64,000 nucleotides of DNA, from positions 29,388,001 through 29,452,000 of the forward strand of contig OZ024750.1 of assembly GCA_964016885.1 (NCBI GenBank), read 5' to 3'. Positions within the stretch are counted from its first letter, which is position 1; each line of letters begins with the position of its first letter. A program made the translations under genes and the position numbers. The notes beneath the pieces are model-generated. The model was given only the letters and a program-made list of their open reading frames with translations. It had not been told where the DNA came from and searched no databases. The DNA is from Eledone cirrhosa (lineage: Eukaryota). Of this stretch, positions 1-25,972 are shown piece after piece.

Positions 1-136
1 ATTGCTGGCCTTGTGCCTAAAGTAGAAACAATTATATATATACTGAGCACATTTTTTTCCTTGATCTATTTCTTCGGAAAGTCTTCACACTAAATATATA
101 TATATATATATTTGTTTGTATATATATATAAATGTT

Positions 137-167
<31 letters not shown>

Positions 168-192
168 GTTTGTGTATATATATATGTTTGTG

Positions 193-242
<50 letters not shown>

Positions 243-330
243 TGTGTATATATATATATAAACAAGGTTTAGTAAATAATGAAAAAGTTTCAAAATAAAT
301 TTTAAAAAATTGACTTTACCTACTATAGTT

Positions 331-414
331 ACCTTTACCGATCGGTTTCGAATCCCAAAAATAAAACGGAGACCATACGGCCTTCGTTGCAAAGAAAGAT
401 TCTCGTCAGAAGGT
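331..414 (-). ncRNA. Type I hammerhead ribozyme (mirror copy, perfect stem III)
   Basis: Reverse complement of 601-684 but with ACC-GATC-GGT stem III and a palindromic loop. Confidence 0.85.
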
Positions 415-600
415 TCTTTTCATTCAAAGAATATAAAATTCCTGAATTTAAATCACAAACTAGCGCTATCAAAAACTGTTCCTGGGATGAGAGTGGATGA
501 TGTAGAACAGGTTTATCAAGGGCCGTATCCCAGGAACAGTTTTTGATAGCGCTAGTTTGTGATTTAAATTCAGGAATTTTATATTCTTTGAATGAAAAGA

Positions 601-684
601 ACCTTCTGACGAGAATCTTTCTTTGCAACGAAGGCCGTATGGTCTCCGTTTTATTTTTGGGATTCGAAACCGATCAGTAAAGGT
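601..684 (+). ncRNA. Type I hammerhead ribozyme with extended stem II
   Basis: ACCTT-CTGACGA-GAATC...GATTC-GAAAC-CGATCA-GTA-AAGGT: stem I ACCTT/AAGGT, intact core, GUA cleavage triplet. Confidence 0.8.
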
Positions 685-892
685 AACTATAGTAGGTAAA
701 GTCAATTTTTTAAAATTTATTTTGAAACTTTTTCATTATTTACTAAACCTTGTTTATATTTGTTCTGGCTCGTTAATTTATTAACCCGCCATTGAACCAC
801 ATTGGCACTTGGTTGGACAATACATGCGTACCTTGGCGCCTTGTGCGTGAAGGGACGTATTTCATATTACTATATATATATATATATATGTT

Positions 893-923
<31 letters not shown>

Positions 924-926
924 GTT

Positions 927-966
<40 letters not shown>

Positions 967-987
967 TGTGTATATATATATATATAT

Positions 988-1577
988 GTATGGACACGTG
1001 ATGCGCATGAAAGTCGATAGCTGTATAACAAAGTGCAGGGCAATAAAGATAGACGGTAGCCACGGAATAGGCAGACCTAGAAAAACCTGGGACGAGCTGA
1101 TAAACTCCGACCTCACACACTTACACCTCTCCAAGACAATGTCACTGGACCGAGACCTTTGGCGGTACTCAGTAACAGAGAAGACCCGCCTTACCTAAAT
1201 ACATAGTAAAACCTACTACAGCCAGTAGGCATCTCTAACAAAATACCCCCCCCCCCCCCGTCCCACCACCACCACCCCGTTCTATGTAAAGTTATGTTGG
1301 TGCCACACCATCCAGGCCGAAACAAAATGAGATCGTGTAGGTGTCACGACAAAAAACACACAGTCCACGCTGTAATGTGGCCGTGTAGGCAACACGGTAA
1401 AAACCTCCCAGACCCACACTGTAAATGTGGTTGGTGTTAGGAAGGGCATCCAACTGTAGAAAACCTGCCAGACAGTCCTATGCGAGCAAGACAATCACTC
1501 TTGCCTCAAGTGGGACTACCCCCCGTCCAAACCCATGCAAGCGTGGAACACGGACGTTAAACGTTGATGATGATGAT
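988..1577 (+). mobile_element. 5'-truncated RTE-clade LINE end with (GAT)n tail
   Basis: YGHVMRM...[21 protein letters not shown], then 3' region and CGGACGTTAAACGTTGATGATGAT. Confidence 0.88.
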
Positions 1578-1612
1578 ATATATATATATATATATATATA
1601 TGTTTGTTTGTG

Positions 1613-1644
<32 letters not shown>

Positions 1645-2571
1645 TTATATATATATATAGACAAAACAAACAAAATATCTGAAGCCAGATATGTGAGCAT
1701 TAGGAAGAGCCTGCAATATAACACAGGAACAAGATAAACAATATAACCATGTTGATTTATTGTCAACAATCTCAGATGAAAAGTGTTGGAGGGGGGTGAG
1801 GGTGGGGATAGGGAAAAAATGATGAGTTGAGTAAATGGGAAATATTACATTTGTAAATGGGTCAGTGTAGTTGGGGGGGGGGGGGGAAGGGGTGTAGCTG
1901 GGGGAGTGTAGTTATAGGGGAACTGAGTGTAGATATGAATGGGGGAGCAATGCAGTTATGGTGCCCCTCCACAATCCCGGGGTGTAGTTATAAGGGGAGG
2001 CCAGTACAGTTATGGTGGAACCAAGTGTAATTATATGTAGTTATGGTCCCCTCCCCCTCCCCGTCCCGAGTGTAGTTATGGGGGGGGGGATTCTGGGGGA
2101 GGGACAGGAGTGCGCAGTTATGGGGGACCTAGTGTAGTTATGGCAGGGCCATAGGCCATGAGCAAAACATTCTGTTAGAGCTTCTTTGTTTAAATAGAAC
2201 CCCCCCCCAAAAAAAACTTTTTTTTTTCTGAATATCTGAACTATCTCCAGAGTCTACTAGGTCTCTGTTCCTTTAAATCCAGCAATTTGAAGGGGATAGG
2301 GAAGTCGATAAATTCACCCCCAGTGCATTACTGGTGCTTTATTTTATCGACCCCGTAAGGATGAAAGGCAAAGCTAACCTGGGCAGGATTTGAACTCAGA
2401 ATGTAAAGGGCCATAATTATGCTGCAAAGCAGGGTGTCTGACGCTCTACCGATACTGCCAGGGATCTAATTTAGGTAGAGAGCCAGCAGTTTATGGGAGA
2501 AAGTCAATTATATAGAACCCAGTAATTGACTGATACTTCAATCTATCAACCATGTAAGGATGAAAGGCATA

Positions 2572-2939
2572 GCTGACCTCGGCGGGATTTGAACTCAGAG
2601 TATAAAGGGCCATAACTCTATGCCGTAAAGCATGTTGTCCGATGCTCTGCCGGCACTCCCAATGCTGACCTCGGCGGGATTTGATCTCAGAGTATAAAGG
2701 GCCATAACTCTATGCCGTAAAGCATGTTGTCCGATGCTCTGCCGGCACTCCCAATGCTGACCTCGGCGGGATTTGACCTCAGAGTATAAAGGGCCATAAC
2801 TCTATGCCGTAAAGTATGTTGTCCGATGCTCTGCCGGCACTCCCAATGCTGACCTCGGCGGGATTTGACCTCAGAGTATAAAGGGCCATAACTCTATGCC
2901 GTAAAGCATGTTGTCCGATGCTCTGCCGGCACTCCCAAT
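2572..2939 (-). repeat. 4 x 92-bp tandem of the OK-like SINE tRNA head
   Basis: Units start at 2572, 2664, 2756 and 2848. Confidence 0.9.
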
Positions 2940-3379
2940 CCACTGCCTCCATTGACAGAAAATAAAGACAAGAAGATCATCACTCAAAGAGAAATAAACA
3001 TGCTCTGCTGGACGTGTAATGTTAATGTATATGAACAATGAAGCATGGATAAACTGAGTGAAAAGCTGAGCATAAGAAGTACCGGATGTGTACAGGAGAG
3101 AGGATTGAGCTGGTATCAACATGTAAGGTGATCACTGGTTGAAGAAGAAGTGCCAAGAGATTCATGCGTAAAGAGTTGAGGGAGGGATTGGGGGGGGGTG
3201 ACGACCAAGAAAGAAGTAGAGGAAAGATGTGATACTGGAGAAGACATGTCTAACCTATGGAGACATACAAAAATGTAAACCGATGATGACGATCACAATT
3301 AGGCTAGGAATATTAAGAAAATACAATTTTATTAACATCGACATTGAATATTAAAAAGAAAAGTGAGCATCTAGTGTTT

Positions 3380-4119
3380 CACCTGGTATATCCCACCTAA
3401 GACACCACCTGGTATATCCTACCTAAGACACTACTTGGTATATCCTACCTAAGACACTACTTGGTATATCCTACCTAAGACACTACTTGGTATATCCCAC
3501 CTAAGACACTACTTGGTATATCCCACCTAAGACACTACTTGGTATATCCTACCTAAGACACTACTTGGTATATCCTACCTAAGACACTACTTGGTATATC
3601 CTACCTAAGACACTACTTGGTATATCCCACCTAAGACACTACTTGGTATATCCCACCTAAGACACCACCTGGTATATCCCACCTAAGACACCACCTGGTA
3701 TATCCCACCTAAGACACCACCTGGTATATCCTACCTAAGACACCACCTGGTATATCCTACCTAAGACACTACTTGGTATATCCTACCTAAGACACCACCT
3801 GGTATATCCTACCTAAGACACCACCTGGTATATCCTACCTAAGACACTACTTGGTATATCCCACCTAGACACCACCTGGTATATCCCACCTAAGACACCA
3901 CCTGGTATATCCTACCTAAGACACCACCTGGTATATCCTACCTAAGACACCACCTGGTATATCCTACCTAAGACACTACTTGGTATATCCTACCTAAGAC
4001 ACCCCCCTGGTATATCCCACCTAAGACACCACCTGGTATATCCTACCTAAGACACCACCTGGTATATCCTACCTAAGACACCCCCCTGGTATATCCCACC
4101 TAAGACACCCCCCTGGTAT
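3380..4119. repeat. 26-bp minisatellite, about 28 copies
   Basis: CACCTGGTATATCC(C/T)ACCTAAGACAC with a TACTT variant. Confidence 0.95.
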
Positions 4120-4175
4120 TTATACCCTTGCTATCTAATGTTCATAATCCCAATATAAAGCTTGTTCATCTGTAC

Positions 4176-4461
4176 AACTGGTGTCACAGTGGTATATATA
4201 TGGGTCATGTAATGTATAACTGGTATCACAGTGGTATATATATGGGTCATGTAATGAATAACTGGTATCACAGTGGTATATATGGGTCATGTAATGTATA
4301 ACTGGTGTGTCACAGTGGTATATATATATGGGTCATGTAATGTATAACTGGTATCACAGTATATATATGGGTCATGTAATGTATAACTGGTATCACAGTG
4401 GTATATATATGGGTCATGTAATGTACAACTGGTGTGTCACAGTGGTATATATATGGGTCAT
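4176..4461. repeat. About 42-bp minisatellite, about 7 copies
   Basis: AACTGGTATCACAGTGGTATATATATGGGTCATGTAATGTAT. Confidence 0.9.
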
Positions 4462-4859
4462 TTAAGATTCTTGGTGTAGCAAAGTGATTAATTAAGCAGC
4501 GCCATAGAAATTCCAAAAACGTTAAGATTGCTGCTGACAAGCATACACTTAATTAAAATATTTCTATCAAACTCTGGTTAACTTCACACAATGAATAAAT
4601 AATTCCACTGAAATGATTAATGAGGTAGCGAACCAGCCTTAAGAGGGAGGGGGTCAACCTATGGCACAGATTTACAGATATACAAGTTTTAAATTTTGAT
4701 AAAATAACGTTGGTTTTCAGAGGATCTTTAAAAGTTTGTAAAAATCAATTAAGGATACTGATCAAGATCGAACAGTAGAGTTTCTATGACGCGTTATGGG
4801 ATATCATCATCATCATCATCATTTTACGTCCGCTTTTCCCTGCTTATGTAATAAATAAT

Positions 4860-5033
4860 TCTTTCTACTTTTGGCACAAGGCCAGCAATTACCCCAGTGC
4901 ATTACTGGTACTTTATTTTATTGACCCCCCTTTAGGATGAAAGGCAAGGTTAACCTCGGCGGGATTTGAACTCAGACTGTAAAGGGACGTAACTATGCTG
5001 GAAAGCATGGTGTCCGACTGTACCGATACTGCC
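4860..5033 (-). mobile_element. OK-like SINE
   Basis: 14-bp TSD ATGTAATAAATAAT. Confidence 0.88.
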
Positions 5034-5499
5034 ATGTAATAAATAATAAAGAAAAGGTTGGGAAAGCCGGTACAATCATCATCATCATCATTTAATGTCT
5101 ATTTTTCCATATTTACATGACTCAAGTTGTCAAGTTATGAGACAAGTCAGGTCAGGTGATCATGTCTTGCTCATACGGATCTGTATTTTGGCTTGGTTTC
5201 TATGGCTGGATGCCTTTCCTAATGCCAACCACATTACTGTGTGGATTGGATGCTTTTTATCATGGCACCAAAACAACCACCTTACAGGGTGTACTGAGTG
5301 CTTTTTGTTGTGTCACCAGCACAACCACCTTACTGGGTGGACTGGGTGCTTTTTATCGTATCACCAGCACAACCACCTTACAGGGTGGACTGGGTGCTTT
5401 TCATCATGTCACCAGCACAACCATCTTAAAGGGTGGGTAGAAGTATTAAAATGGAACTGGAGTAAAAAAGGATGACAAGACAATATTTTTATCTAATAC

Positions 5500-6200
5500 A
5501 TTTCATGATATTTCTGCAAATGGTGAACACTGAAAAACGAACAAGGAACACACACCTCTTGGGATAGTCTATGCCATCTAAAGCTATCACATTTCAATGA
5601 GAACCAGCACTGTTATCTGACAAGTTATCTGTAAGGAGGGGCTGAACATCCAGCTGGAGAGACTTCTTTTCAAACCCTGACCCACATACACCAACAATAC
5701 ATGCACACTTCCTAGCTGTCCCATCAACATGGAAGATGTTTGTGGTATACAAGGTCACTTGTAGAAACTGTGGTAGCTCAGACATTGGTAGCACTGTCTG
5801 GATGCTACACATACAGATCAAAGAACACACGATAGGTGCTTCCTCTATCCAAAAAACACAAAGAGAAATGTCACACCTGAGACATTGATGTCACCGTGGA
5901 GTCAACAGAGAGGAATATTGGTATTGTATGCATTAAAGAAGCTCTACTTATAAACAGGCATAATCCAAGCATCAACAATAAATCAGAAATACATGGAGCA
6001 GACTGGCTGTTAATAACTGGTCAGTGCATGTTACACACATCCACTGATGCTCCGTGTATATCTGCTCATGTCACACATCCACCAATGGTCAGTGACATAC
6101 ACAACACAGAAAAAGTTTGAGAGAACAGAATACATATTTTTTTTTTCTGATTTGTTCATCATTTGAAAAGGTCTTGAAATATGAAATATATAGGGTAAAA
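5500..6200 (+). pseudogene. Penelope-like GIY-YIG endonuclease remnant
   Basis: 5742-5828 translates VVYKVTCRNCGSSDIGSTVWMLHIQIKEH, preceded by a Cys-rich linker (CTLPSCPINMEDVC, other frame) and followed by IKEALLINRHNPSIN. Boundaries approximate. Confidence 0.8.
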
Positions 6201-6413
6201 ACAATATTTTGTTTTTGTTATCCCTTTTACCACAGTACCATGTTTATCAGCATTGTACTAGTATTCTCTACTATTTATTACAACTGATGTAGATACTGTT
6301 TAGGTCAGCTTTGATCAAGTAGACCTATGAAAACATTCCAGCTGTTATCTGGTTTTGTTGTTTTTGCTTTGTAAATCAGGGACTACACCCAGTGTATCCA
6401 GTTTTATATAAGA

Positions 6414-6851
6414 CTAGCTGGTCCCGTGCCATAAAAAATGACGGCTAATTGTAATATATATACATAATATAAAAAAGAGATGTTTGTTTGTTGGAAGTTT
6501 GTCATCACCCTCCTTCCTCAGTCGACGTTATCACCCCTTCCTTCCTCTGTTGACGTAATCACCCCTTCCTTCCTCAGTTGACGTAATCATCCCTTCCTTC
6601 CTCAGTCAACGTTATCACCCCTTCCTTCCTCAGTTGACGTAATCATCCATTCCTTCCTCAGTCAACGTTATCACCCCTTCCTTCCTCAGTTGACGTAATC
6701 ATCCATTCCTTCCTCAGTCAACGTTATCACCCCTTCCTTCCTCAGTTAACATAATCATCCCTTCCCTCCCCAGTTGACGTTATCACCCCTTCCTTCCTCA
6801 ATCATCTCTAGTGCATGACAGACAAATACACAAGGCTATTATATTAATAGA
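6414..6851 (-). mobile_element. Non-autonomous Helitron-like element with internal 28-bp minisatellite
   Basis: Minus strand starts TCTATTAATATAATAG, has TGTCTGTC, and ends with a CCGT..ACGG hairpin plus CTAG|T; about 10 tandem 28-mers at 6503-6800. Confidence 0.7.
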
Positions 6852-8330
6852 GTGTGATGAAAGATTTGGTTACTATTTTTGGCAAGTTGCATGACCATGC
6901 TAAGGCTCCTTGGTTTAATAATTCTGATTAACCCTTTGGATACTAAACCACCCTTGGTCCTACAATAGAAAATTGTTTTAAATTGTTTCTATTTATCCCA
7001 AAACCTTCCATCATAGTTTTATGTAAGAATCTTTAAGTTATGTTTGAAACACCAGCTTGATAATGAGGAAGTTATTTTACTAAATCTGTCCAAACTCTTT
7101 TCAAAATTTTTTGAAAGTCATGGACAGTGTCTTTCATAAGAAATATGGTGAGGAAATGGTTAAGATATTTGAGGAAATACCGAAAACACTAATATAGTGT
7201 CATTGACTTATTTATAAGAGCCACTACATGTTCCTAGCCTAATAAAGCAACCACACCAAAAGCCAGCTGACTACACAGCAACAGGATATAAAGAATGTAA
7301 TATATAGAGAAATATAGAAATAGGAGTCAATAGAAAACAATATTTTTTAGTTGTTAAGGCTTGTATAAAATAATAGATGAAGCCATTTGTATAATATAGA
7401 TTGAGTGTCAGATGTTGGTTCAGTAATAATCTCAAGCTAACCAAACCAACCCGTAGACAATGTTCCATTCACTTATAACCAACAAACTAATTGTTCTTGA
7501 TGAAGGATATGGGAACGAAGGAGCTGCTTTACTTTAACAGTCGGAATACAAGGTGTGTGTGTGTATGAAGGTGTGTGTGTGTATGTATAGAGCGAGAGAT
7601 ACACATACATATATGTTGGCAAGGAAAATAGACATTAAATGATATATATATATTATACAGATGCACACGTGCATGCATACATACATACATGCTAGCAGGG
7701 AAAATGGACATTAAATGATACACACATACACATATACCAGACAATCAATACAATTTCAATTACTGTAATACAATGTATTGAAGGTTGGGGGGTCTGGTTC
7801 ATGAAGAATACAACTTTAACCATACAAAACTTGATATAGTTAAGAGTAGGTAAAAATCACCTTCAGTTAAACCAACCTATGTAGGATGTTTACAAACTGT
7901 CTACTGGGAAATATAGAGACCGATTATAAAGGAAGTCATGTTGGTGACAGGATAAAAAGCATATAGTCCATCCTTTAAGGTGGTCATATTTGTGACACGA
8001 CAAAAAGTACATAGTCCATCCTGTAAGGGGGTTGTGTTGGTGACAGGATAAAAAGCACGCAGTTCATCCTGTAAGGTGGTCATGCTGATGACATAAAAAG
8101 CACCCAGTCTATCCTATAAAAAAACAGCCAGTCCACCCTATCAGGTGGTTGTGTCAGTGCCATGATAAAAAGCACCCAGTCTACACTGTAACATTAGTTG
8201 GCATTGAGCTGTAGAACATAAGCCAAAATACAGATCTGTACGAATATGATGTGGTCTCCAGATCTGACTTGTCTCATAATTTGACAATCCAACCCATGCA
8301 AGAGTGGAAAATGGACATTAAATGATGATG

Positions 8331-8364
<34 letters not shown>

Positions 8365-8367
<3 letters not shown>

Positions 8368-8900
8368 GAAAAATGATCAAACAAACACACAGGACACAAA
8401 TTTTTACAGTTATATTAGGTTCACGCTTAGTGGAAGTGGAGGAGGTTTCGACGTTTCACAGGAAAGTTCGGATAGGAAGAGAACAGAAACTCGAAGGAGT
8501 AGTAAGGGAAGGTTAGGGAAGGAAATAAAAAAAATATATAACTAAAAATGAAATGGTGGGGGGGGTATAGGTCCAGGCTAGAGGGCCAGGGTAGATGGTA
8601 GGAGGTGGCATGGGTGTGGTATAGTGTGTGTGAGTGTGTCAAAGGGGAGGAATGGGTAGAATGCAGCGCTTCAAATTGTTCTGTGTTATATGAAGAGAAG
8701 CCTGTCGGGTATTGGTTTTGTGTGTGTTTGTGTGTATGTGTAGATGTAAATACGTGTATGTGATGTAGAATGTATATTTTTTTTGTTAGTGCGTATACGG
8801 GAGTAGGAGTGTATGTGATGTTAATAATTGTTTATTTTGTGTGCGGGTAAAAAAAAATCACGTGCATGAAACGTGAGCATGCGTGCGGGTATATGTGATG
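8365..8900 (-). mobile_element. Probable Penelope-like 3' end remnant
   Basis: Minus strand GTGAAACGTCGAAAC (hammerhead 3' half) near 8445-8460; tail ends at the (TA)n at 8335-8364. Confidence 0.4.
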
Positions 8901-8904
8901 TTAC

Positions 8905-9673
8905 TATTGTGTCGAAGACCTCCTTCGGTCACGAATGACCATGTAATTTGCACCTAGAAAGTTTCCCTGCGAGGCACAAGTCCAGGCAAGGTTGTTTGAG
9001 GAAGACCAGCAGTCGCCCATACATACCAGTCTCCCCACTCCATGCCAAGGGAAAGGCAATGGCTGATACACCTTGGCACCAATGACGTCACAACTCATTT
9101 CTACAGCCGAGTCAACTGGAGCAATGTGAAATAAAGTGTCTTGCTCAAGGACAATGCATCACCTGGTCCGAGAATCAAACTCACAACCATTTAATTGCAA
9201 TCCCAATGCTCTAACCACTAAGCCATGCACCTTCAACTATTGTTGATGTGTTGTTTCCTTGAGCAAGACACTTTATTTCACATTGCTCCAGTTTACTTAG
9301 CTGTAGAAATGAGATGATAGGACTGGGGTCCCTATCATTCCACTGCAAAGTGGTCGTGGAGGTGCCACGGCAAAAAAGCACCCAGCCCACACTGTAAAGT
9401 GGGCGTGTAGGGGCCACAGTAAAAAAGCACCCAGCACTCACTGTAAATGAAGTTGGTGTTAGGAAGGGCATCCAGCTGTAGTAATCAAGCCAGAGTCAGT
9501 TCCCGTCCCACCCTTGCAAGCAGGGAAAAGCGGATGTAAACTGCTGAGTAAACTGGAGCAATGTGAAATAAAGTGTCTTGCTCAAGGAAACAACACATCA
9601 CCCAGTCTGAGAATTGAACTCACAACCTTTCGATTGCAAGGCCAATGCTCTAACCACTAAGCCATGTGCCTCC

Positions 9674-9704
<31 letters not shown>

Positions 9705-9830
9705 CATCATTTCATTTTACATCCGCTTTTCCCTGCTTGCAAGGGTGGGATGGGAACTTTCCCTGCTTGCAAGGGTGGGATGGGAACTGATTCAAGGCCA
9801 ATGCTCTAACCACTAAGCCATGTGCCTCCA
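8905..9830. mobile_element. Cluster of rearranged OR1/OR2-like SINEs
   Basis: Minus SINE 8905-9235, plus body 9245-9540, minus head 9543-9674, deleted minus copy 9700-9830. Confidence 0.8.
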
Positions 9831-9837
9831 TAACAAA

Positions 9838-9873
<36 letters not shown>

Positions 9874-10274
9874 TTTGTTAATGAAGCTTCAGGCACTACA
9901 CATACAAACAGAGAGACATCGATTCACACAAACTTTTCTTTTGTTTCATTTAAGAGGAGAGGGGAGTGGTGGGAGTTGGTGGCTAAAGGGGAAAAATCTA
10001 TGACTGGTCACTATGGCAACAAAGCCAAACGATATAACGAGATGAGATTTGTCTTTTTTTCTGAAACAACAATCTAGTACATAATACTAATTATTATAGA
10101 TTAATTACATAGAAAAACTCATTATATATTCATTATTTATTTATTGGGGAAATTATCCCTTCTAGGGTCATAATTTTGATGGTGTATTAAGGGTGGGTGA
10201 CCCTTAAAGTTGTATTAAGGGTGGGTGAACCCTAATGTCGAATTAAGGGTGGGAGAACCCTAAGGTTATATTAA

Positions 10275-10494
10275 CCCTTTATCATTTACATTACTTTATA
10301 TATACTATTATATTTTCATGGTAAAGGCTTTACCTCGCATAATTATCTCACATAATATTGAATCTATGAGATTTTGAAAGTATTTATTTTGAGAACAATA
10401 CCTTAACATCAGTATGAATGACCAGTTACAGCCAGTTTCAACAGAAAGAGGTAGAGAATTCTGGCCGGTTTTGGCCAGTTTGAACATTAGAGGG
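10275..10494. mobile_element. piggyBac-type MITE, reverse orientation
   Basis: TTAA-CCCTTT...GAGGG-TTAA. Same family at 14262-14467, 18312-18485, about 19140-19341, about 24437-24612, 28378-28586 and 51106-51356. Confidence 0.8.
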
Positions 10495-10953
10495 TTAAGG
10501 GGAGGTGTACCCTAAGGCTGTATTAAGGGTAGGTGAACCTTAAGTATCCATAATTTTATGAAATGAAATGTACATCCCATGCCACATCTATGCAGGTTTA
10601 GCTGACCTTCTACAATGTTGCATCTCATTGGAGGTTTCTCAGGTGTGTTAATGATAGTGGCCCCAGTTACACCTTGGAAAGTTATGTGAAATGAAGTGTC
10701 TTGCTCAAGAACACAACACACCACGGGGAATTGAACTCACAACCTCATGATCATGTGTCCAACAACATAATCACTAGGCCATGTCCTTTGATAGTTTTAG
10801 TGCACGACTGGTATTAAATAGAACTGGCTTAAAGTAAAATGAAATATTCAAAAGAATTTTACATTAAGTTAAGATCAATAGGGCATCAATAGATATTGAT
10901 GGTTGAGTATAGCATAGACTATAATCAATATTGAAGTGACAACACCAGTAACA

Positions 10954-11376
10954 GGGGGTGGGAGGAGGGGAGAGAGGGAGGGAATGAGAGAGAGGGAGGG
11001 GAGAGAGGGAATGAGAGATAGGGAGGGGAGAGAGGGAATGAGAGATAGGGAGGGAGGGAGTGGGTGAGAGGAGTGGGTGAGAGTGGAAGGGAAGGAGTGG
11101 GTGGGTGAGAGTGGAGGAAGGAGTGAGTGAGTGGGTGAGAGTGGAGTGAGTGAGTGGGAGGAAGGAGTGAGTGGGAGGAAGGAGTGAGTGGGTGAGAGTG
11201 GGAGGAAGGAAGGAGTGAGTGGGTGAGAGTGGGAGGAAGGAAGGAGTGAGTGGGTGAGAGTGGGAGGAAGGAAGGAGTGAGTGAGTGAGAGTGGGAGGAA
11301 GGAAGGAGTGAGTGAGTGAGAGTGGGAGGAAGGTGTGAGTGAGTGGGAGGGAAGGACGGAGGGAGAGAGAGGGAGG
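10954..11376. repeat. Purine/G-rich low-complexity tract
   Basis: GGGAGG/GAGTGAGTGGG repeats. Confidence 0.9.
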
Positions 11377-11499
11377 TAATAATAATAATAATAATAATAT
11401 AAAAATGCCAACATGATAAGATGGTTGCCATGTTGCACTGGAGCTGATGTAAAAAATATGGATTTCCATGTGCAGAAAAAAAGCTATGAACCTGCTGTC

Positions 11500-12015
11500 A
11501 TAAATGAGATGAGAGTGCTAGAGTGGTGTAATAAGGCTCTTATGGGACTTCACAATTCAGGCAGATGTGAAGATCAAATACAACAAACTGGATATTGTCA
11601 TAATTAAGAAGACAACCTGTACTCCCGTAGATGTAGGGTGATCTTTTGACACCAGATTTGAATGAAAAGAGGAGAAAATAGGGGCTTATACCAAACTAAA
11701 ATATGAGATCTTGAAATGCTGGAGTAATAAAGTGAAGACAGTCATCATTGTACCAGTGGTGATTGGCACTCTTGGCATGGTGACAAAGAACCTTAAAAAC
11801 AGACTGCACCAGGGATTGAACCACTCTAGAAGTCATGCCTACTGGGAACAGTTGGAATATTGAGAATGGTTCTGGACTACCAGCAGTAGCAAAATGACAA
11901 AGGACATGAAATGGTTTCGAGTTACTCCAGGTTACTGGTTGTAGTAATCCCTAAAATAACTGGCCCAAAACAAGATCAAAGTTGGTCATGAGAAACAATT
12001 AAAAAAAATAATAAC
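11500..12015 (+). mobile_element. R4/Dong-like LINE 3' remnant (RLE domain)
   Basis: Fragments LKYEI, VIIVPVVIGTLGMVTKNLK and KSCLLGTVGILRMVL; boundaries approximate. Confidence 0.7.
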
Positions 12016-12419
12016 AATGGCTTCTAATTTAGGCACCAAGCCAGCAATTTTAGGGGAAGGGGAAATTTGATTAAATCTACCCCCAGTACTTGACTAGTAC
12101 ATTATTTTACTGACATTAGAAGGATGAAAGGCCAAGTTGATCTCAGTGGAATTTGAACTTAGAACAAGCCAATATTTATATCCTTAACTGAAAGATATCA
12201 CCATAACCTAATGGTTAGGATGCTGGACACAAGACCATGAGGTTCTAAGTTCAATTCCTGGTGCGAGCAAGGCATTTCATTTCACGATACAACTCGGACT
12301 CCTATCATTAAGACACCTGAGAAACCTTTTATGAGATGCAACCACATAGGAGACCAGATAAACCTGCAAAGGTGTGAGCTGCAAATTTCATTTTTTTTTC
12401 ATTTCACATATATCATAAT

Positions 12420-12451
<32 letters not shown>

Positions 12452-12784
12452 TTCATTTCATTTTACGTCCGCTTTTTCCCTGCTTGCAAGGGTGGGACGG
12501 GAACTGATTCTGGCTTGATTTCTACAGCTGGATGCCCTTCCTAACACCAACTTCATTTACAGTGAGTGCTGGGTGCTTTTTTGCCGTGACACCTCCACGA
12601 CCACTTTGCAGTGGAATGATATGGACCCTAGCCCTATCATCTCATTTCCACAGCTGAGTAAACTGGAGCAATGTGAAATAAAGTGTCTTGCTCAAGGAAA
12701 CAACACATCACCCGGTCTGAGAATTGAACTCACAACCTTTCAATTGCAAGGCCAATGCTCTAACCACTAAGCCATGTGCCTCCA
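12420..12784 (-). mobile_element. Full-length OR2-like SINE
   Basis: Reverse complement of the 28848-29178 family. Confidence 0.88.
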
Positions 12785-12819
12785 CATGGCTTAGTATATA
12801 TATATATATATATATATAT

Positions 12820-12996
12820 AACGAAGGAAATGTGGTAAGGAACCAGGTGGACCATAACGCACCAAAGTACTCAATACTTGAAGTAGTAGAGTGGGTAATA
12901 GGAACCAGTAAGACCCCGACAGCTGAGCTCAAGCCGTTTCGACGGCTAATTAGCCGTCGAAACGGCTTGAGCTCAGCTGTCGGGGTCTTACTGGTT

Positions 12997-13001
<5 letters not shown>
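12820..13001 (-). mobile_element. Hammerhead 3'-half element with perfect 104-bp spacerless palindrome
   Basis: 12898-13001 is a perfect palindrome centred on GGCTAA|TTAGCC. Each arm has GTC-GAAAC-GGCTTGAGCTCAGCT-GTC-GGGGTC; the tail 12820-12897 is unpaired; TA flanks. Confidence 0.8.
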
Positions 13002-13066
<65 letters not shown>

Positions 13067-13069
<3 letters not shown>

Positions 13070-13192
13070 CAAAGGAATTGTGGTAAGGAACCAGATGGAC
13101 CATAACACACCAGAGTACTCAATACTTAGGGTAGTCCAGAAATAGCCGTCAAAACGGCTTGAGCTCTGCCGTCGAGGTCATACTTTTTCACA
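13067..13192. mobile_element. Rearranged copy of the 12.8 kb family (inverted tail plus forward hammerhead half)
   Basis: 13067-13130 matches 12820-12885, then CAGAAATAGCCGTCAAAACGGCTTGAGCTCTGCCGTC; TA flanks. Confidence 0.75.
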
Positions 13193-14045
13193 TATATATA
13201 TATATATATATATAGTCTACCCATGCTAGAAAGATTTAGGCTATTATTTCAAGGTTTTGTTAAAGTATACAATATTATATCTAGAACATAAACTAGGTGT
13301 TGTCTGTTGTTTGTCTTCAGAGAAAGAAGATTGACCTAAAAACCTATTATTTATTTGGTTTAGGTAACATCTCTGAAAATGTAAACTGTTGAGATTATAT
13401 ATGTATGTCTTATGAAGACTGGGTTGCTATGAAAATCAGGAGGGGAAAAAAAAATGACATGTTCATGTTTATGTGTGTTAGTTCCTTTAGAATATGTTTA
13501 TAAATCAAAACACACACACACACACACACACTCATCCACGCACACAAACACACACACTACAATCTCAATCTTCAGACTTAAGTGAAAATGTAGTTTATAT
13601 GTGTTCCAAACAATGAAAGGATAGGTTGTAACTGACTCACTAACATAAATATACAAATAATTAAAAATAATTAAAAAAAAACTACTACAAACCATTTGAC
13701 AGAACTTGCAACAAATCTTTTAAATACAACATTGAAAGAGAGAGGACATGTTTTAATTGTTTTAATCTCTGTATAGCAGGGAGTCTGAAACTCAAGGATT
13801 CAAAAAAGGCCATTATATCTTGAGGGAGGCAGACGATGTCAAAAGTGAGATGATGGTTGTTATGTTAATGATGATGATGTAAGGCTTTCCAAGTCATTGC
13901 TTCTCTGGATTCTTTGTTGAAGGATAGCTTATCATAATATTATTAATCTTGTCTCCAACCTCTATGAACCAACATACCCCAACCCCAATAAGGAACCTTC
14001 TGTGCAGTCATCTGACCTCACAAATTCCTCTCAAACTGTCTAGAC

Positions 14046-14219
14046 CTGGGGTCTCAAACTTAATGATTCCAAAGGACCATTATATCCTAAGCGAGAGGCG
14101 CAGTGGGACCAAAAGTGAGATGAGGTTGTGAGGACATGATTTCCACTAGTTATAAACTTTAATGCTAATCTACAACACAACTGATAATCTGCCTTTTGGC
14201 TAAGTGCTTGAGACCCCTG
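14046..14219. mobile_element. Short hAT-type MITE
   Basis: CTGGGGTCTCAA / TTGAGACCCCTG ends; partial related copy at about 13778-13860. Confidence 0.6.
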
Positions 14220-15054
14220 CTTTAGAGTTTAGCATAGTTGTGTGATTATTGGACGTTTTAGCCCTTTAGTAATTTAAACCGGCCGTATCCAGCCAGAATT
14301 CTCTCACTTCTTTCTGTTCAATCCGGCTGTAACTGGCAGCTCATACTAATGTTAAAGTATTGTTCTCAAAATAAATATCAAAATCTCATAGATTCAGTAT
14401 TATATGAGATAAAGCCATTACCATGAAAATATAATAGTAAATATAGAATAATATAAATGCTAAAGGGTTAATTTCCAAACACCTGGTTTTAGGTTCAGTT
14501 CCACTGTGTGACACCTTCAGCAAGTGTCTTGTACTGTAGCTTCAGGTTTACCAATGACTGCTGAGTGAATTTGGTAGACAGAAACTGAGGGGAAGCCCCA
14601 TCATATATACAATGCACCAAAGACAACATTATTCAATAAGCCCTTTTTTAAAAGATAGTGATGCATGCTTTGAAGGAGATTTGGTTGATATTGCTAACAC
14701 ACAAAATCAACTGGTTCTACATGACTGAAGATTCTATTAGTGGTCACATCAGCAGGTATCAGAGAATGATAGTTGCTTTTCAGCTGTACTTTTTACTTTC
14801 ATTACAACTTTTTGTACTTTAGCAAAACTGCCTGTTTTTTTTACAGATTTACAACGTGTATTGTCTTTAATCATTTGTATAACTACATCCTGTTCAGTGT
14901 TTTCCTTCATTATCAGCATAGTTTTATGTGTACAAAGATTGCACTAAATATTCGTTTGCATTAATTATTGAAGACTTCTGCTTATTTTGACAGGTTGGGG
15001 ACAAATAATGTTCTTCTTTTACTTCCTAGCTGTATATTCTTAGCATAATTTCAA

Positions 15055-15084
15055 ACCCCGAGCAACGCCGAGTAAATCTGCTAG
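15055..15084 (+). mobile_element. Helitron-like 3' terminus
   Basis: CCCGAGCAACGCCGAG hairpin about 10 nt before CTAG|T; 5' end not identified. Confidence 0.5.
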
Positions 15085-15138
15085 TTACTAATATTTGTAA
15101 TGAGGTATGGAAGACACCTGGTCATAGTTCATTATCAT

Positions 15139-15321
15139 GGGGGATTGGCAGTATCGGTAAAGGGTCGGACGCCATGCTTTGATGCATAGAGTTACGGCCC
15201 TTGCCATTCTGAGTTCAAATCCCGCCAAGGTTAACTTTGCCTTTCATCCTTATGGGGTCGATAAAATAAAGTACCAGTAATACACTGGGTGATTGCTGGC
15301 CTTGTGCCAAAAGTAGAAACA
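15139..15321 (+). mobile_element. OK-like SINE
   Basis: TSD ATTATCAT. Confidence 0.88.
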
Positions 15322-16709
15322 ATTATCATCATTATCCGCCTCACTATCACCACCATCATTATCATCATCACTATTTTCTATACTTATATGGGTTGGACAA
15401 GCTGTCCCGAGATGGCTAGATGACCTTCCTAACACCAAACCTGTTACAGTATAGATTAGGTGCCATGATGAAAAAGCACCCAGTTCACTTTGTAATGTGG
15501 TTGGCATTAGGAAGGGCATCCAGCCATAGAAACCAAGCCAAAAGCAGTTCTGTATGAGCAAGACACTATCCCATGATCTGACCTAACATGTCACCTAACA
15601 TGACAACCCATCTAACCCATGCAAGCATAGAAAATAGACGTTAGTGGTTACAGCATTGGACTCACAGTCATATGGTTGTGTTCAATTCATAAACCAGATA
15701 ATACATTGTGTTCTTGTGTAAGACACTTCATTTCATGTTGCTTTTTATTATAGGGCTAGGATCCCTATCATTAAACACATGAAAAACAACCTATGAGATG
15801 TAACCTTGTAGGAGGCCTTTTAAACCTATATAGGTGTTGACTAGGGTCCCTCCCTATTATTAAAAACCTATGAAACCACTTATGAGATGTAACCTTATAG
15901 GAGGCCTATTAAACCTATATAGGTGTGAGCTCTATGGAGGGAGTAGCTTAAATTTTAAAAAGAATTCTTGTGGAGTATAAACAGGTGAAACACAAGAAGT
16001 TTTGGTGTTTTATTACAAGGGTATGAAGAGATCAAATAAATTGAATTACAACATACCGCAAATTTAATCTTATATTTCTTTGTACAGTGAATAACTTAGA
16101 ATAATGGAATTTGAAATAACAGGAACAAATTCCAAGTTAATGACTCAAGACCAACAGGTTGTGATGTCTCAGGAAATTCTTAGTTGGATTTTGAATTTTG
16201 TAGAAACACACCCACCACTTAAACATAATAGTGGTGGTAATGGTAGTAGCAGTGGTGGTGATATTAGTAGTGGTAGTAGTAGTAGCAGTAGTGGTGGAAG
16301 TAGTGGTGGTAGTATTAGTAGTGATGTTGGTAGTGGTGATGGTAGTGGTAGTATAAGCTATCTTATTTAGCCCTTTTGATACCAAATCATTTTTAGTTTT
16401 ATGAAACAAAACTGTCTATTTTAAAGTGTTTACATTTATCTACAATCCCTTCCACCATAATTTTATGTAAGAACATTTGTTAAGCTATGTTCCAAACACT
16501 ACCTTAATGAGAAAGTGATATATTATATATTACTAAACTTCACCCTTCCTTCCTTCCCCCAACTGAAAAACAAGTAATTTCCGATGGGTTTCGAGGTCAA
16601 AAATCGTTGAAAACACGCACAAAAGAAGAGGAAAAAGAAAAATTCCTACCGGAATATGAGATGAAAGTTTATGTAAAAATTTATCAAAGCTATTTATCAC
16701 CATCTACAT

Positions 16710-17338
16710 CAAGGGTTCCCAACATTTTTTTTTGCATCATCGCCCACTTTTACATTTTCCACCACCCACCTATAAAGTAAATATTCAAAAGCATACAAAA
16801 ATGTTTGGTAAAAGTTTGTTCCTATTTAGCCACCTATGTTTTTTTTAAATTTTTTTTTTTTATTATAAAGGTTCTTTGCATATCCCCTTTAACCCTTTAG
16901 CATTTAAACTGGCCACATCTGGCCAAAATTCTCTCACCTCTTTCTGTTCAAACCGGCTGTAACAGGCCACTCATACTTATGTTACGGTATTGTTCTCAAA
17001 ATAAATAACATCAAAATCTCATAGATTCAATATTATGTGAGGTAAAGTGTTTACCACAAAAATACAATAGCATATATAGAGTAATTGTTTCTACTTTAGG
17101 CACAAGGCCAGCAATTACCCAGTGCATTACTGGTACTTTATTTTATCGATCCCGTAACGATGAAAGGCAAAGTCAACCTCGGCGGGATTATAGAGTAATG
17201 TAAATGTTAAAGGGTTAAATATATCCTTTCGGGCAGCCCATGTAGAAATACCTTCCTAACACTCAAAATTCTATATTGCCTACCATTTTCTGTTCAGTTG
17301 CTCATTGTGGGTGATACTGCTCTGGTTGGGAAACCTTG
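16710..17338. mobile_element. hAT-type MITE with nested piggyBac-type MITE and SINE
   Basis: TIRs CAAGGGTTCCCAAC / GTTGGGAAACCTTG; TSD ATCTACAT/CTCTACAT. Confidence 0.8.
16893..17214. mobile_element. piggyBac-type MITE (TTAA target) with SINE insertion
   Basis: TTAA-CCCTTTAGCATTTA...TAAATGTTAAAGGG-TTAA; SINE 17086-17188 with TSD TATAGAGTAAT. Confidence 0.85.
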
Positions 17339-18519
17339 CTCTACATCAAACATTGACAGTCACATGTACAAGCTAAAGGTGTCACATTGTGTCAAGCTAT
17401 ATAATATATACTACATATACATTTTAGGACTGATTCAGCAGATTTATGATCAAAGGCACTATTGTTGTCCCTGTTGATCTTATTGTCATGTACAGTCTAC
17501 TTAGATATACATTATTCAATGAGTCCTTCCATTTTTAAGATAGTTAGGTGATGTGATATGAGCTGCTATGTGTTTGGCTGCTATTTTTAACAGGTTAAAC
17601 AACCACAAAAAAGAGGCTTCCCTCTTTGACTTAACTAAATAGATATTAAGATAGTTAGGTGATGTGATATGAGGGAGATTTGGCTGCTATTTTTAACAGA
17701 TAAATGACCACAAAAAAAGAGGCTCCCTCGTTAACTTAACTAAATAGATATTAATATAGTTGGGTGATGTGATATGAGGAAGATTTGGGTGCTATTTTTA
17801 GCAGATTAAACAACCACAAAAAAGAGGCTCCCTCTTTAACTAAATACATAGACATCTATTGTGCTATCACATATCTCCACTGTATAACAGACTCATACAA
17901 TAAGGTGATAGCGCCAAAGCTGATACTCAGAGCATAAAGAAAACTAAAGAAATTATTTCATACTATGAACAAGAATAAAAGATTACAGAACAGAGTCAAA
18001 AATGTTTTTCTTGTCGCAGGACCACAAGGGTGGTGGTGGAAGTAGAGTTTGTTGAGAAGTGGGAGGATAGCAAGGGAGGGGGAGGAAATTAATACTGACG
18101 TGTTTAACTATTGAAAGCATACTTTCCCACACAAATAATAAAATGTAACTTTTTTTTTTCACGTAGCTATGATCGAACAAGACCTTAACTATAACAGCAC
18201 ATTTTTAGTTTTAGATATCAACATCAACATCACGAATGAAGGTGTCTATGTGGTTTCATGGCTTGCTAGAAATAACAGCTAAATCTCCCTCAAATCACAT
18301 TCTACATCTTACCCTTTAGCATTAAACCGGTTGTAACTGGCTGCTCATACTGATGTTAAAGTATTGTTCTCAAAATAAATAATATCAAAATCTCAGATTT
18401 GATATTATGTGAGATAATTGTGTGCAGTAAAGCCTTTACTGTGAAAATATAATAGTAAATATAGAGTAATATAAATGCTAAAGGGTTAAACATGTAAAGA
18501 CAAGAAACAGGGTCTCAAA

Positions 18520-18860
18520 AAGATTTAAGTGTTCCAGACTCCTCTGTAAAATCGGAACAATAGCAGCCCATCTGAGGAAAGAGCCCCATGAGGTGGGGTG
18601 GCTGTTTGCTGGTCATTGTCCATGGAAATGCCTTTGCCATTTTGTCTGTGGGGTGCAACCGAAACACCCCTCAAACTTTGGTGTAGAATGTCACTCGCTC
18701 CCCTTCCCCTAGTGCTTCTTGTTCTTCCCTTCCTTTTCCTCTCATTTATGGCATTTATTGTCCTTTCCAATAATGCTTTTTTTCTGAATGTTTGACCAAT
18801 TTGTAGTAATGTCCAAAATATTTTGGTTTCCTTCCTGTTACGCTGTCAAATTTTTCTTAA
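18520..18860 (-). mobile_element. Degenerate RTE LINE 3' fragment
   Basis: Minus strand KYFGH...LLERTI...RKGRTR, resembling the RTE C-terminus. Confidence 0.55.
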
Positions 18861-18892
18861 GTTTTTGCCATTTAAAATGCCAATTAGATAAT

Positions 18893-19071
18893 TGTTTCTA
18901 CTTTAGGCACAAGGCCAGCAATTACCCAGTGCATTACTGGTACTTTATTTTATCGACCCCGTAAGGATGAAAGGCAAAGTCAATCTCGGCGGGATTTGAA
19001 CTCAGATCGCAAAGGGACGTAACTATGCTGGAAAGCATGGCGTCAGACCCTCTACCGATACTGCCAATCCG
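18893..19071 (-). mobile_element. OK-like SINE
   Basis: TSD ATTAGATAAT. Confidence 0.88.
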
Positions 19072-19344
19072 ATTAGATAATGCAGTCCAGGAAGCAATGT
19101 TTGAAAATATGACAATGGTAATGTCTGGAACACTTTAAACCTACACCATTTACATTAAACTATATTTACTATTGTATTTTCATGGTAAACACTTTACCTC
19201 ACATATCAAATCTATGAGGTTTTGATATTTATTTTGAGAACAATACCTTAACATAAGTACGAGTAACCAGTTACAACCAGTTTGAACAGAAAGAGGTGAG
19301 CAAATTCTGGCCGGATATGGCGGGTTTAAATGCTAATGAGTCAA

Positions 19345-20076
19345 TCCCTTTTGAAACCCTATTTCTAATGGCAATGTCTGGAATACTATAACACCTTTTG
19401 AAACCCTAATTCTAATGGCAATATCTGGAATACTATAACCCCTTTTGAAACCCTATTTCTAATGGCAATGTCTGGAATACTATAACCCCTTTTGAAACCC
19501 TATTTCTAATGGCAATGTCTGGAATACTACAACACCTTTTGAAACCCTAATTCTAATGGCAATATCTGGAATACTATAACCCCTTTTGAAACCCTATTTC
19601 TAATGGCAATGTCTGGAATACTATAACCCCTTTTGAAACCCTATTTCTAATAGCAATGTCTGTAATACTATAACCTCTTTTGAAACCCTATTTCTAATGG
19701 CAATGTCTGGAATACTATAAACTCCTTTTGAAACCCTATTTCTAATGGCAATGTCTGGAATACTATAAACTCCTTTTGAAACCCTATTTCTAATGGCAAT
19801 GTCTGGAATGCTATAACCCCTTTTGAAACCCTATTTCTAATGACAATGTCTGGAATACTATAACCCCTTTTGAAACCCTATTTCTAATGGCAATGTCTGG
19901 AATACTATAAACCCCTTTTGAAACCCTATTTCTAATGGCAATGTCTGAAACACTATAACCCTTTTGAAGCCCTATTTCTAATGGCAATGTCTGGAATACT
20001 ATAACCCCTTTTGAAACCCTATTTCTAATGGCAATGTCTGGAATACTATAACCCCTTTTGAAACCCTATTTCTAAT
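19345..20076. repeat. 47-bp minisatellite, about 15 copies
   Basis: CCCCTTTTGAAACCCTATTTCTAATGGCAATGTCTGGAATACTATAA. Confidence 0.95.
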
Positions 20077-20534
20077 GAAATATAAGACACAATGGTAAGG
20101 ACTGGAACATTATAAACCATATTTCTATGAAATAAATTATTTTTCTGTTTCTAATTTATTTTGAAAATAATCAAGAATTTGTAGGACTTTAAATGCAATA
20201 ATGAACTTTTACATTATTAGATATAATCCACATCAGTGCTTGCACCATTATGCAAATTAGGGTTGACCAATTCCACTATTTGAATTTGTGGATACTATAA
20301 ATAGTATAGTAATAATAATAATGGTCTCTAGTATAGGCACAAGGCCTGCATTTTGGGTAGAGGGAAAAGTTGATTAAATTGACCCCAGTGCATTACTGGT
20401 GCTTTATTTTATCAACCCCGTAAGGATGAAAGGCAAAGTTTACCTTGGCGTGATTTGAACTCAGAACGTAAAGCCAATTGAAATCATAGTGAGAGTTTTA
20501 ACAAGCATCAAACCTAAATATGTTAGTAGTGTCC

Positions 20535-21405
20535 TGAACAGCTGTATGTTGGTACTATCCTCATATAGGATCACCCCTTCTAAATAGCTGTATGTTGGTA
20601 CTATCCTCCTATATAGGATCACCCCTTCTAAATAGCTGTATGTTGGTACTGTCCTATATAGGATCACCCCTTCTAAATAGCTGTATGTTGGTACTATCCT
20701 CTTATATAGGATCACCCCTTCTAAATAGCTGTATGTTGGTACTGTCCTATATAGGATCACTCCTTCTAAACAGCTGTATGTTGGTACTATCCTCCTATAT
20801 AGGATCACCCCTTCTAAACAGCTGTATGTTGGTACTATCCTCCTATATAGGATCACCCCTTCTAAACAGCTGTATGTTGGTACTATCCTCCTATATAGGA
20901 TCACCCCTTCTAAACAGCTGTATGTTGGTACTATCCTCCTATATAGGATCACTCCTTCTAAACAGCTGTATGTTGGTACTATCCTCCTATATAGGATCAC
21001 CCCTTCTAAACAGCTGTATGTTGGTACTATCCTCCTATATAGGATCACCCCTTCTAAACAGCTGTATGTTGGTACTATCCTCCTATATAGGATCACCCCT
21101 TCTAAACAGCTGTATGTTGGTACTATCCTCCTATATAGGATCACCCCTTCTAAACAGCTGTATGTTGGTACTATCCTCCTATATAGGATCACTCCTTCTA
21201 AACAGCTGTATGTTGGTACTATCCTCCTATATAGGATCACCCCTTCTAAACAGCTGTATGTTAGTACTGTCCTCTTAGATAAGATCACCCCTTCTAAACA
21301 GCTGTATGTTAGTACAGTCCTCTTAGATAAGATCAGCCCTTCTAAATAGCTGTACATTAGTACTGTCCTCATATATAAGATCACTCCTTTTAAATAGCTG
21401 TATGT
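20535..21405. repeat. 48-bp minisatellite, about 18 copies
   Basis: AAACAGCTGTATGTTGGTACTATCCTCCTATATAGGATCACCCCTTCT. Confidence 0.95.
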
Positions 21406-21591
21406 TAATATTCCCTCTGTGGTCAGAGAAATTAAGATTTAATATTGGGAACTAGTCTGGCTAGTTACCTTTTCCTGATCACACACAAACAAAGATATGT
21501 GATTTAACCACCGTGTCTACTTTTCACAGTCAGGCTAAAAATATATTCATTAAAAATACCCCCTTCCCCATAGGTTTACCACACACACACA

Positions 21592-21633
<42 letters not shown>

Positions 21634-23079: not shown

Positions 23080-23535
23080 ACATATTCCTAGTGGGGGGCA
23101 GAATCTTCAAACACTCCTTCCAGTGGGTCCTGTCAGAAACAACCAGCTCCAATTGATCTGGCTGGATCCCCAAGCGAGACCAGCGAAGCTCATGGATGTT
23201 ATCCAACCATCTTGCTCGGGGGGGGTCTACCCCTCGGTCTCCTGCCAGTTTGTTTTGCCTGTCAAACCTGTCCAGCAATACTTTCCTGAGACATTCTAAC
23301 CACATGCCCATAGAATCGAAACTGTGATCTCTCAATTCAGAGAAGTAGTGGCTCTACCTTGAGTGACTCATCTCTGAGCTACGCACTCCAATGAGTAACA
23401 TTACTCCAAAGACCCTTCTGGTGAACCCAATTTTGGTCGCTTGTATTTGAAATTGTATTCTTTCAGTCATTACCCAAGATTCATGCCCATCAGTAAGGGG
23501 TGGCATGAATACTGAATTGAAGATATTAAGTTTGG
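23080..23535 (-). mobile_element. Degenerate RTE LINE fragment
   Basis: PRARWLDNIHELRWSRLGIQPDQLELVVSDRTHWK; related copy at 26585-26935. Confidence 0.7.
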
Positions 23536-25459: not shown

Positions 25460-25972
25460 ACTGTCCCTCGTCGGTCACAAATGACCATGGGATTTACACC
25501 TAGAAAGTTCCCCTCCGAGGCACAAGCCAAGGAATGGTGTTTTCATGGAAGGCCAGCAGTTTCCCATATTACCAGTCTCCCTTCATGTCACTAATGTTGT
25601 CCAAGGGAAAGCCAATGACTGATACAGCTTGGCATCAATGACGTCACAACATATATACACTATATATATATATATATATATATATACATACATACACACA
25701 CACACACACACATTATACATACACTTTATATGTTGTCCAAGGGAAAACCATTGACCGATACAGCTTAGCACAACATATATACACTATATATATATTATAT
25801 ATATATATAATATATATATATACCTTATATATACACTATATATGTCGTCCAAGGGAAAGGCAGAGGCAGATACAGCTCAGTACCAGTGACACAACACACT
25901 GCCTGGTCCAGGAATTAAACTCACAACCTCACGATTGTAAGCTGAAAGCTCTAGCCATTAAGCCATGTGCCT
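25460..25972 (-). mobile_element. OR1-like SINE split by microsatellite and partial duplications
   Basis: Similar to 8905-9235; GTCCAAGGGAAA..GATACAGCT segment occurs three times. Confidence 0.7.

Follow-up and report, generated by a model that had tools for sequence, protein, structure and literature searches.

A lopsided hammerhead palindrome in an Eledone cirrhosa intron is probably a young retrozyme insertion made by a Penelope-like enzyme

Results

The window, a 64,000-nt stretch of the Eledone cirrhosa genome, carries a palindrome with hammerhead motifs inside the first coding intron of a CLIC/exc-4-like gene on the minus strand (Table 1). The gene came to light through Pfam and PDB searches, in which a CLIC/exc-4-like exon was detected 47 kb to the left, and a homologue placed exons 1 and 2; the Pfam scan drew on 150 of the 206 filtered reading frames from the window plus the 48 kb on its left. 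Exon 2, at C10:29349788 (-), has its start 38.2 kb left of the window and joins exon 1 in frame, and the resulting gene model, based on homology and GT/AG sites, gives intron 1 a length of 77,136 bp, in agreement with the intronic location envisaged in the first-pass annotation. A search for the GST N-domain missed the host gene, which was recognised by its CLIC identity instead.

Table 1. Coordinates of the palindrome, its hammerhead motifs and flanks, and the host gene in the window
Feature	Position	Strand	Remarks
Left (TA)n microsatellite	91..260	.	TGTTTGTG interruptions; target site
A arm	256..526	-	monomer 446-483 then 1-233; stops at fixed end A, joined to (TA)n; on sense strand of host gene
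Intact type I hammerhead motif	331..414	-	stem III CC-GAUC-GG; predicted cleavage between 336 and 335
38-nt "loop"	489..526	-	additional 5' sequence of the A arm (monomer 446-483)
B arm	527..872	+	monomer 1-346; stops at fixed end B, joined to (TA)n
Type I hammerhead motif with G>A at 676	601..684	+	predicted cleavage site 679/680, after GUA
Tail	760..870	+	~110 nt (~108) spanning ends A to B; Penelope-type
Right (TA)n microsatellite	871..990	.	interrupted pattern as on left, direct orientation
Second palindrome, same CLIC intron	32954..33392	.	different repeat family (1,923 candidates), (TA)n flanks
First coding intron, window part	1..38924	-	holds the element, 38 kb from either splice site
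First coding exon, CLIC/exc-4-like	38925..38954	-	MIPEFELWIK, then GT donor at 38924

Two head-to-head arms of 233 nt each, at 256-488 and 527-759, differ at one position (339 C versus 676 A) and enclose a 38-nt loop, with an asymmetric tail (760 to ~870) on the right side only, just as had been described at first pass. The loop is not random but monomer sequence on the minus strand, which brings the true length of the left arm to 271 nt. At the inversion junction (526/527), microhomology amounts to 1 nt, and the outermost ~5 nt of both arms (TATAT) are common to the (TA)n target, within which a target-site duplication cannot be delimited.

Elsewhere in the window, the palindrome at 32954-33392 matches the anatomy of the first: it consists of a 170-nt arm and a 256-nt arm with a tail, carrying a CUGAAGA...GAAA motif on both strands with a stem I that lacks canonical closure; a single-arm relative lies at 54514-54298 (-). 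At 12898-13001, a perfect 104-bp palindrome with (TA)n flanks, one arm of which extends further left, is possibly another inverted Penelope-type stump. Two more single hammerhead motifs lie upstream of CLIC exon 1, at 55692 (-) and 57019 (+). The window also contains tRNA-like matches at 57294-57367 (-) and 9603-9666 (-), mariner-like transposase remnants at 43538-44613 and 63201-63713, and, at 5533-5991, a decayed fragment of a second, non-Neptune Penelope-type frame with 36-47% identity to the L141 frame.

Both arms of the palindrome carry a type I hammerhead motif, which upholds the claim of a ribozyme on each strand at the level of motif anatomy, conservation and covariation. In the plus-strand motif, stem I (601-605/680-684) is followed by CUGACGA (606-612), stem II (613-617/661-665) encloses a 43-nt insert, and GAAA (666-669) precedes stem III, CC-GAUC-(G/A)G, from 670-677. 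Stem I of the retrozyme hammerhead reads ACCUU/AAGGU, stem II GAAUC/GAUUC and the cleavage triplet GUA. The minus copy contains the entire core (CUGANGA, GAAA and NUH) together with helices I-III, helix I being open. The plus copy has a C-A mismatch in helix III, where the palindrome's sole mismatch breaks a C-G pair in this copy only; this change at 676 converts CpG to CpA in a column that has G in 181 of 185 aligned family units, and folding predicts a stem III self-duplex of -16.6 kcal/mol for the intact form versus -4.8 kcal/mol for the mutant.

Rfam gave no hammerhead match at the gathering score in the window, nor at E<=10 within 200-1000, for which the long stem II insert may be the cause; the ribozyme call therefore rests on motif anatomy, conservation and covariation. 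Our purpose-written hammerhead motif scanner returned 1 match per 143 kb of shuffled sequence. Ribozyme core and helix columns vary by 0.2-0.7%, versus 1.4-7.3% elsewhere in the monomer, and we therefore infer that the ribozyme was kept by selection during spread. Stem I covaries between families: ACCUU/AAGGU of the retrozyme is wholly exchanged for GCUGU/ACAGC in a sister family, and the stem is still paired.

Searching the organism's own genome (3.0 Gb) with the element yielded 1,884 candidates, the best 40 of which are 99-100% identical. The copies are parts of a 483-bp monomer arranged head to tail, with window position 527 as monomer position 1; the window palindrome lacks 100 nt of this monomer, and one retrozyme arm holds up to 10 full ribozyme units in 483-bp tandem. 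Exact matches to a 23-nt word of the ribozyme number 1,225 across the genome, compared with 0 for its reversed control, and extrapolation from 46 sampled loci gives an estimated ~560 retrozyme loci, ~150 of them with a ribozyme on both strands. By its sequence, the family fits the definition of a non-LTR retrozyme, a non-coding tandem repeat with one type I hammerhead per unit. At one locus, 22 variants are common to all units and absent from other loci, a pattern that would fit a single recopied template without proving it. A literature search, with subscription journals mostly outside its reach, found no published report of the 483-bp family or of intronic self-masking, and the words "hammerhead" and "ribozyme" are absent from the accessible part of PMC13282606.

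Several best-hit copies break at monomer position 1, and a TATA-like word lies 30 nt upstream; a transcription start at this position was considered and rejected, the hotspot not being established because only 5 genome-wide matches lack the preceding C. No clear 5' truncation peak at the cleavage site was visible by eye among 66 ends of the ordered sample described below. Private changes in retrozyme copies, singletons among which may contain assembly errors, show no A>G excess as an ADAR footprint (A>G at 13 of 122 A sites, compared with 22/88 for G>A, 22/99 for C>T and 30/169 for T>C).

Retrozyme copies stop in (TA)n at two fixed RNA sites, A and B. End A is monomer position 233 (window 759/256), 80 nt past the cleavage site, and end B is monomer 341-346 (window 867-872), 188 nt past it. 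Standard A and B ends enter (TA)n at nearly all loci listed, and both also terminate single-arm insertions. We classified loci in two samples: an ordered sample, in which the first 100 of 1,225 matches in genome order correspond to 46 loci on C1, and a best-hit sample of 30 non-overlapping loci, the palindrome locus among them. The ordered sample contains 19 head-to-head loci (15 A+B, 1 A+A, 0 B+B and 3 with one odd end); the other 27 comprise 18 single A, 7 single B, 1 single odd end and 1 pair of separate convergent insertions. One locus classed as single-orientation, L091, has a short B arm visible by eye. In the best-hit sample, we counted 18 A+B, no A+A or B+B, 2 odd or complex and 10 single loci. 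Pooling the two samples gives 34 inversions that can be classified, and 33 of them are A+B (p = 2e-9 versus an expectation of at most 50%).

Among the 33 A+B loci, the longer arm can be either one (18 versus 15), and the 5' ends lie more than 10 nt apart in 29 and within 10 nt in 4 (1.4 expected). Judged from BLAST end points, 23 of 38 junctions overlap, mostly by 0-3 nt, 7 are blunt and 8 have inserted bases. Target-site duplications, mostly unreadable in (TA)n, were clear at 1 and possible at 1 of 74 loci. The flanks of L038 carry a 15-16-nt direct duplication with additional TA repeats between duplication and element, suggesting that some TA was added during priming. L030 sits between long inverted flanks. 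The claim that the ribozyme is always preceded by its own antisense stands for this locus and for divergent loci, but fails for the family, whose loci are mostly single-stranded or tandem-only: a full ribozyme is present on both strands at 12 of the 46 sampled loci, and an antisense copy is available 1:1 for 28 of 96 ribozyme copies.

The same ends and pairing recur in related families. A diverged sister retrozyme (85 exact matches; 459-467-bp units at L133:6010-6919 and L156-L185) likewise ends at +80/+188, and the 6 inverted loci that we examined are 5 A+B and 1 B+B. A coding family with RT and GIY-YIG domains, assigned by Pfam, has 12,324 ribozyme matches; the first 100 of these contain 20 close pairs, every one divergent, and all 7 classifiable inversions are A+B, with 3 unclassed. 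Because the A+B form is present in both of these families, the shape belongs to the enzyme and not to this locus. Coding Penelope fragments also form palindromes of 3.3-3.6 kb at L142:1760-5025 and L136:1058-4655, with arm identities of 99.7% and 98.6%, respectively; the ends at L142 are one A and one B.

No ORF with RT and GIY-YIG endonuclease lies inside the retrozyme element, and no Penelope reading frame is attached to the retrozyme in 105 loci; unrelated fragments are neighbours at 2 places and in the window. RT+GIY-YIG ORFs are found elsewhere in the genome, most with a Neptune-type CX2-5CxxC motif, and long open Neptune-type frames occupy L131:1275-4562, L132:2309-5122 and L133:1988-4519. 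No homology of the monomer to a coding family's pLTR was seen among 50 endonuclease loci (from 150 matches listed of 10,596 candidates), and none above shuffles to 8 other hammerhead-bearing ends save the sister retrozyme (z 9.2); a family whose stem I is identical and whose A end lies at nearly the same distance from the cleavage site (82 versus 80 nt) scores z 0.1. The L132 family, whose hammerhead is a U3-A8 core variant with stem I and GAAACC..GGUAAAGG in common with the retrozyme, is a candidate partner, with no alignment signal beyond this common motif.

A young insertion, as suggested at first pass, is supported by a divergence of 0.2% from the column majority. The A arm is identical to a natural monomer, that of L002, across m1-233 and m445-483, and the B arm differs by the 676 change only. 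Homogenisation of the arms, offered as the other explanation of their near-identity, proved unnecessary: each arm resembles copies at other loci as closely as it does its partner, and the identity of the minus arm to another natural copy means that their likeness reflects a young family. The sequencing runs listed as matching the element include no RNA run, which carries no evidence on expression. Over window 262-1100, sequencing run X1 gave one 513-nt contig (483 + 30, the monomer as a cycle) at a depth of 13.8, with 2 differences over the compared parts. Its organism label differs from that of the variant-rich runs, and the retrozyme family may be present, near-identical and at low copy, under a second species label.

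Discussion

The family closely resembles the metazoan non-LTR retrozymes of Cervera and de la Pena 2020 (PMC7229834) and Li, Clavereau and Pollet (bioRxiv 2026.07.22.740005). As far as the accessible portions of these sources go, both are non-coding tandem monomers of a few hundred bp with low GC, carry in each unit a single type I hammerhead whose stem III is 2 bp long and has a palindromic tetraloop, are dispersed as monomers to multimers, and co-occur with Penelope-like elements. The present family differs in its 483-bp unit and the 43-nt insert in stem II, and it is known from sequence, whereas non-LTR retrozymes are also defined by expression as linear and circular monomer RNA. Inverted copies and two fixed ends are described in neither source as far as accessible: the text of PMC7229834 contains the word "inverted" 0 times, and that of bioRxiv 2026.07.22.740005 does not describe them. 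To account for retrozyme spread, the latter proposes local tandem amplification alongside mobilisation by Penelope enzymes.

The palindrome structure itself is already known for Penelope-like elements, in which an inverted 5'-truncated copy (pLTR) lies head to head with the element and the tail is often one-sided (Arkhipova 2013, PMC3846280; Craig 2021, PMC8557442). Insertions of this type and the retrozyme copies have in common the head-to-head inversion, the one-ended tail, 5' truncation, (TA)n targets and a hammerhead in the terminal repeat; the retrozyme differs in having no ORF and no sequence link found to a coding partner. Its tail of ~108 nt compares with 30-40 bp in print (PMC8557442, PMC11167929) and ~63 nt in the local coding family. 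The Penelope protein studied in vitro, Poseidon PAc (Frangieh 2024, PMC11167929), offers a biochemical parallel: it is a predicted dimer, cuts both strands of AT-rich DNA and extends them, and initiates at a pair of internal RNA positions between which the tail lies. No difference between strands in the use of these sites is reported in the accessible part of that study, whereas the retrozyme copies pair one A with one B, suggesting that, in a single event, each strand is primed at a site of its own. Poseidon PAc also starts without homology, whereas the retrozyme ends are TATAT-like and match the target.

We consider it likely, at roughly 85%, that the palindrome is a young insertion of the non-coding, 483-bp hammerhead repeat, that this non-LTR retrozyme depends on a Penelope-like RT/GIY-YIG enzyme acting in trans for its copying and insertion, and that its lopsided head-to-head shape is a normal integration product and not an adaptation. 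In the mechanism that we propose, the enzyme would nick both strands of the (TA)n target; reverse transcription would be primed at A from one target 3' end and at B from the other, on a template common to both primings, which could be a single circular or multimeric RNA or sister RNAs of one source. Each cDNA would halt at a variable point, and a head-to-head junction using 0-3 nt of microhomology would unite the pair. Both cDNAs would extend toward the RNA 5' side, so the antisense would always come before the sense ribozyme. In L1 twin priming, both target strands prime, and an inverted 5' segment is joined by microhomology. The route proposed here has these features in common with it but differs in its fixed second priming site and in a tandem or circular template that lets the two cDNAs overlap into a palindrome. 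Stops of the first cDNA at the second primer occur at 3 of 33 loci, with 2.1 expected, and an L1-type collision of two cDNAs was rejected.

The arms of one locus carry common non-majority variants and diverge about as little as tandem units do (at L097, they differ at 1 of 477 nt, have 43 variants in common and are 9% from the majority), which points to one template or one source locus, although local homogenisation or unsampled source arrays could also account for such variants. So would fold-back self-priming of one cDNA, or an antisense template, with the endonuclease trimming the tail off one end, as proposed for rotifer Penelope elements in PMC3846280 and hinted at in PMC8557442; near-perfect centres occur at L012, L016, L031, L097, L136, L142 and window 32954. 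At the present locus, however, the A arm has 38 nt that the B arm lacks and the B arm has 110 nt that the A arm lacks, and a single nucleotide of junction homology is available. Across the family, the 5' ends mostly lie well apart, A and B ends both occur on single-arm insertions, and the additional sequence can fall on either arm, so one-sided fold-back does not explain it. We judge this origin of the second arm unlikely, although the 4 of 33 A+B loci with 5' ends within 10 nt suggest that fold-back may make some. That the palindrome is an assembly or chimera artefact from a fold-back read appears very improbable. Palindromes are error-prone in assemblies, and the 526/527 junction is crossed by no independent read or contig in 4 DNA or unlabelled sequencing runs; this blank is weak, because the runs consist of reduced-representation reads or collapsed contigs, possibly from other individuals. 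Against an artefact, each arm stops at a different site specific to the family, a pattern repeated at 32 other loci, the loop consists of family sequence without a counterpart in the opposite arm, and the flanks continue in direct and not mirrored orientation.

On the gene-sense strand, the antisense of the B arm is read first and the intact ribozyme second. Folding supports the proposal that the hammerhead is masked in a long dsRNA: the gene-sense copy is predicted to be buried in the 233-bp duplex, with ribozyme formation costing +131 kcal/mol in the full hairpin versus +5 to +10 in a single arm, and the full-hairpin cost stands even for a transcript stopped 6 nt past the ribozyme. It is a sound prediction that the hairpin in the CLIC pre-mRNA would mask the intact ribozyme completely. 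The further suggestion that the palindrome is a built-in safety is not supported: head-to-head A+B is a generic Penelope-type integration product in this genome and is already in print, and since this known inverted-plus-tail structure probably explains the palindrome, no safety function is needed. The hairpin that buries the ribozyme would be a by-product, which may make the insertion harmless and open it to editing. Hammerheads with a 2-bp palindromic stem III reportedly cleave poorly in vitro when they stand alone and have no partner in tandem (PMC4209133), which may leave little to mask.

A selective filter could act on palindromes that arise mechanically, if intronic gene-sense hammerheads were tolerated mainly when antisense masks them, leaving palindromes enriched in introns. 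The locus is intronic, its gene-sense ribozyme is the intact copy, and the predicted cost of forming it is that of the full hairpin; the 77-kb intron holds 2 palindromes and 1 decayed antisense copy but 0 unmasked gene-sense copies, and Xenopus retrozymes are reported to be depleted in introns (bioRxiv 2026.07.22.740005). With n=3, however, zero unmasked sense copies has a chance of ~0.25 (hand estimate from the family's mix of forms), so the intron copies fit the filter but are too few to count. In addition, motifs of this kind failed to cleave in vitro as single copies in the accessible part of PMC4209133, and 8 of 9 Xenopus retrozyme dimers are given as inactive in that of bioRxiv 2026.07.22.740005. 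We therefore hold the filter to be a rather doubtful idea.

To the known structure, our analysis adds a counted one-A-one-B rule in three families, a +80/+188 spacing that is conserved, and a concrete example from an intron where self-masking of the sense ribozyme is predicted. The A/B footprint on retrozyme copies provides direct genomic support for movement by Penelope enzymes, and the young family is a countable system for testing the origin of the tail and inversion, which the accessible parts of PMC8557442 and PMC11167929 call unresolved. The ~560 loci, with far more copies of the coding families, would permit testing of intron masking given a gene annotation. Near-perfect 200-bp intronic hairpins are candidate substrates for editing and small-RNA pathways. 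Paired priming is our tentative and fairly improbable conjecture for how these observations connect: one Penelope complex would prime both target strands at different fixed sites of the same RNA, so that ~4 in 10 insertions are born head-to-head, and those spanning the ribozyme would self-silence as dsRNA, would be the ones tolerated in intron-sense orientation, and may seed long perfect pre-mRNA hairpins in an animal likely rich in A-to-I editing.
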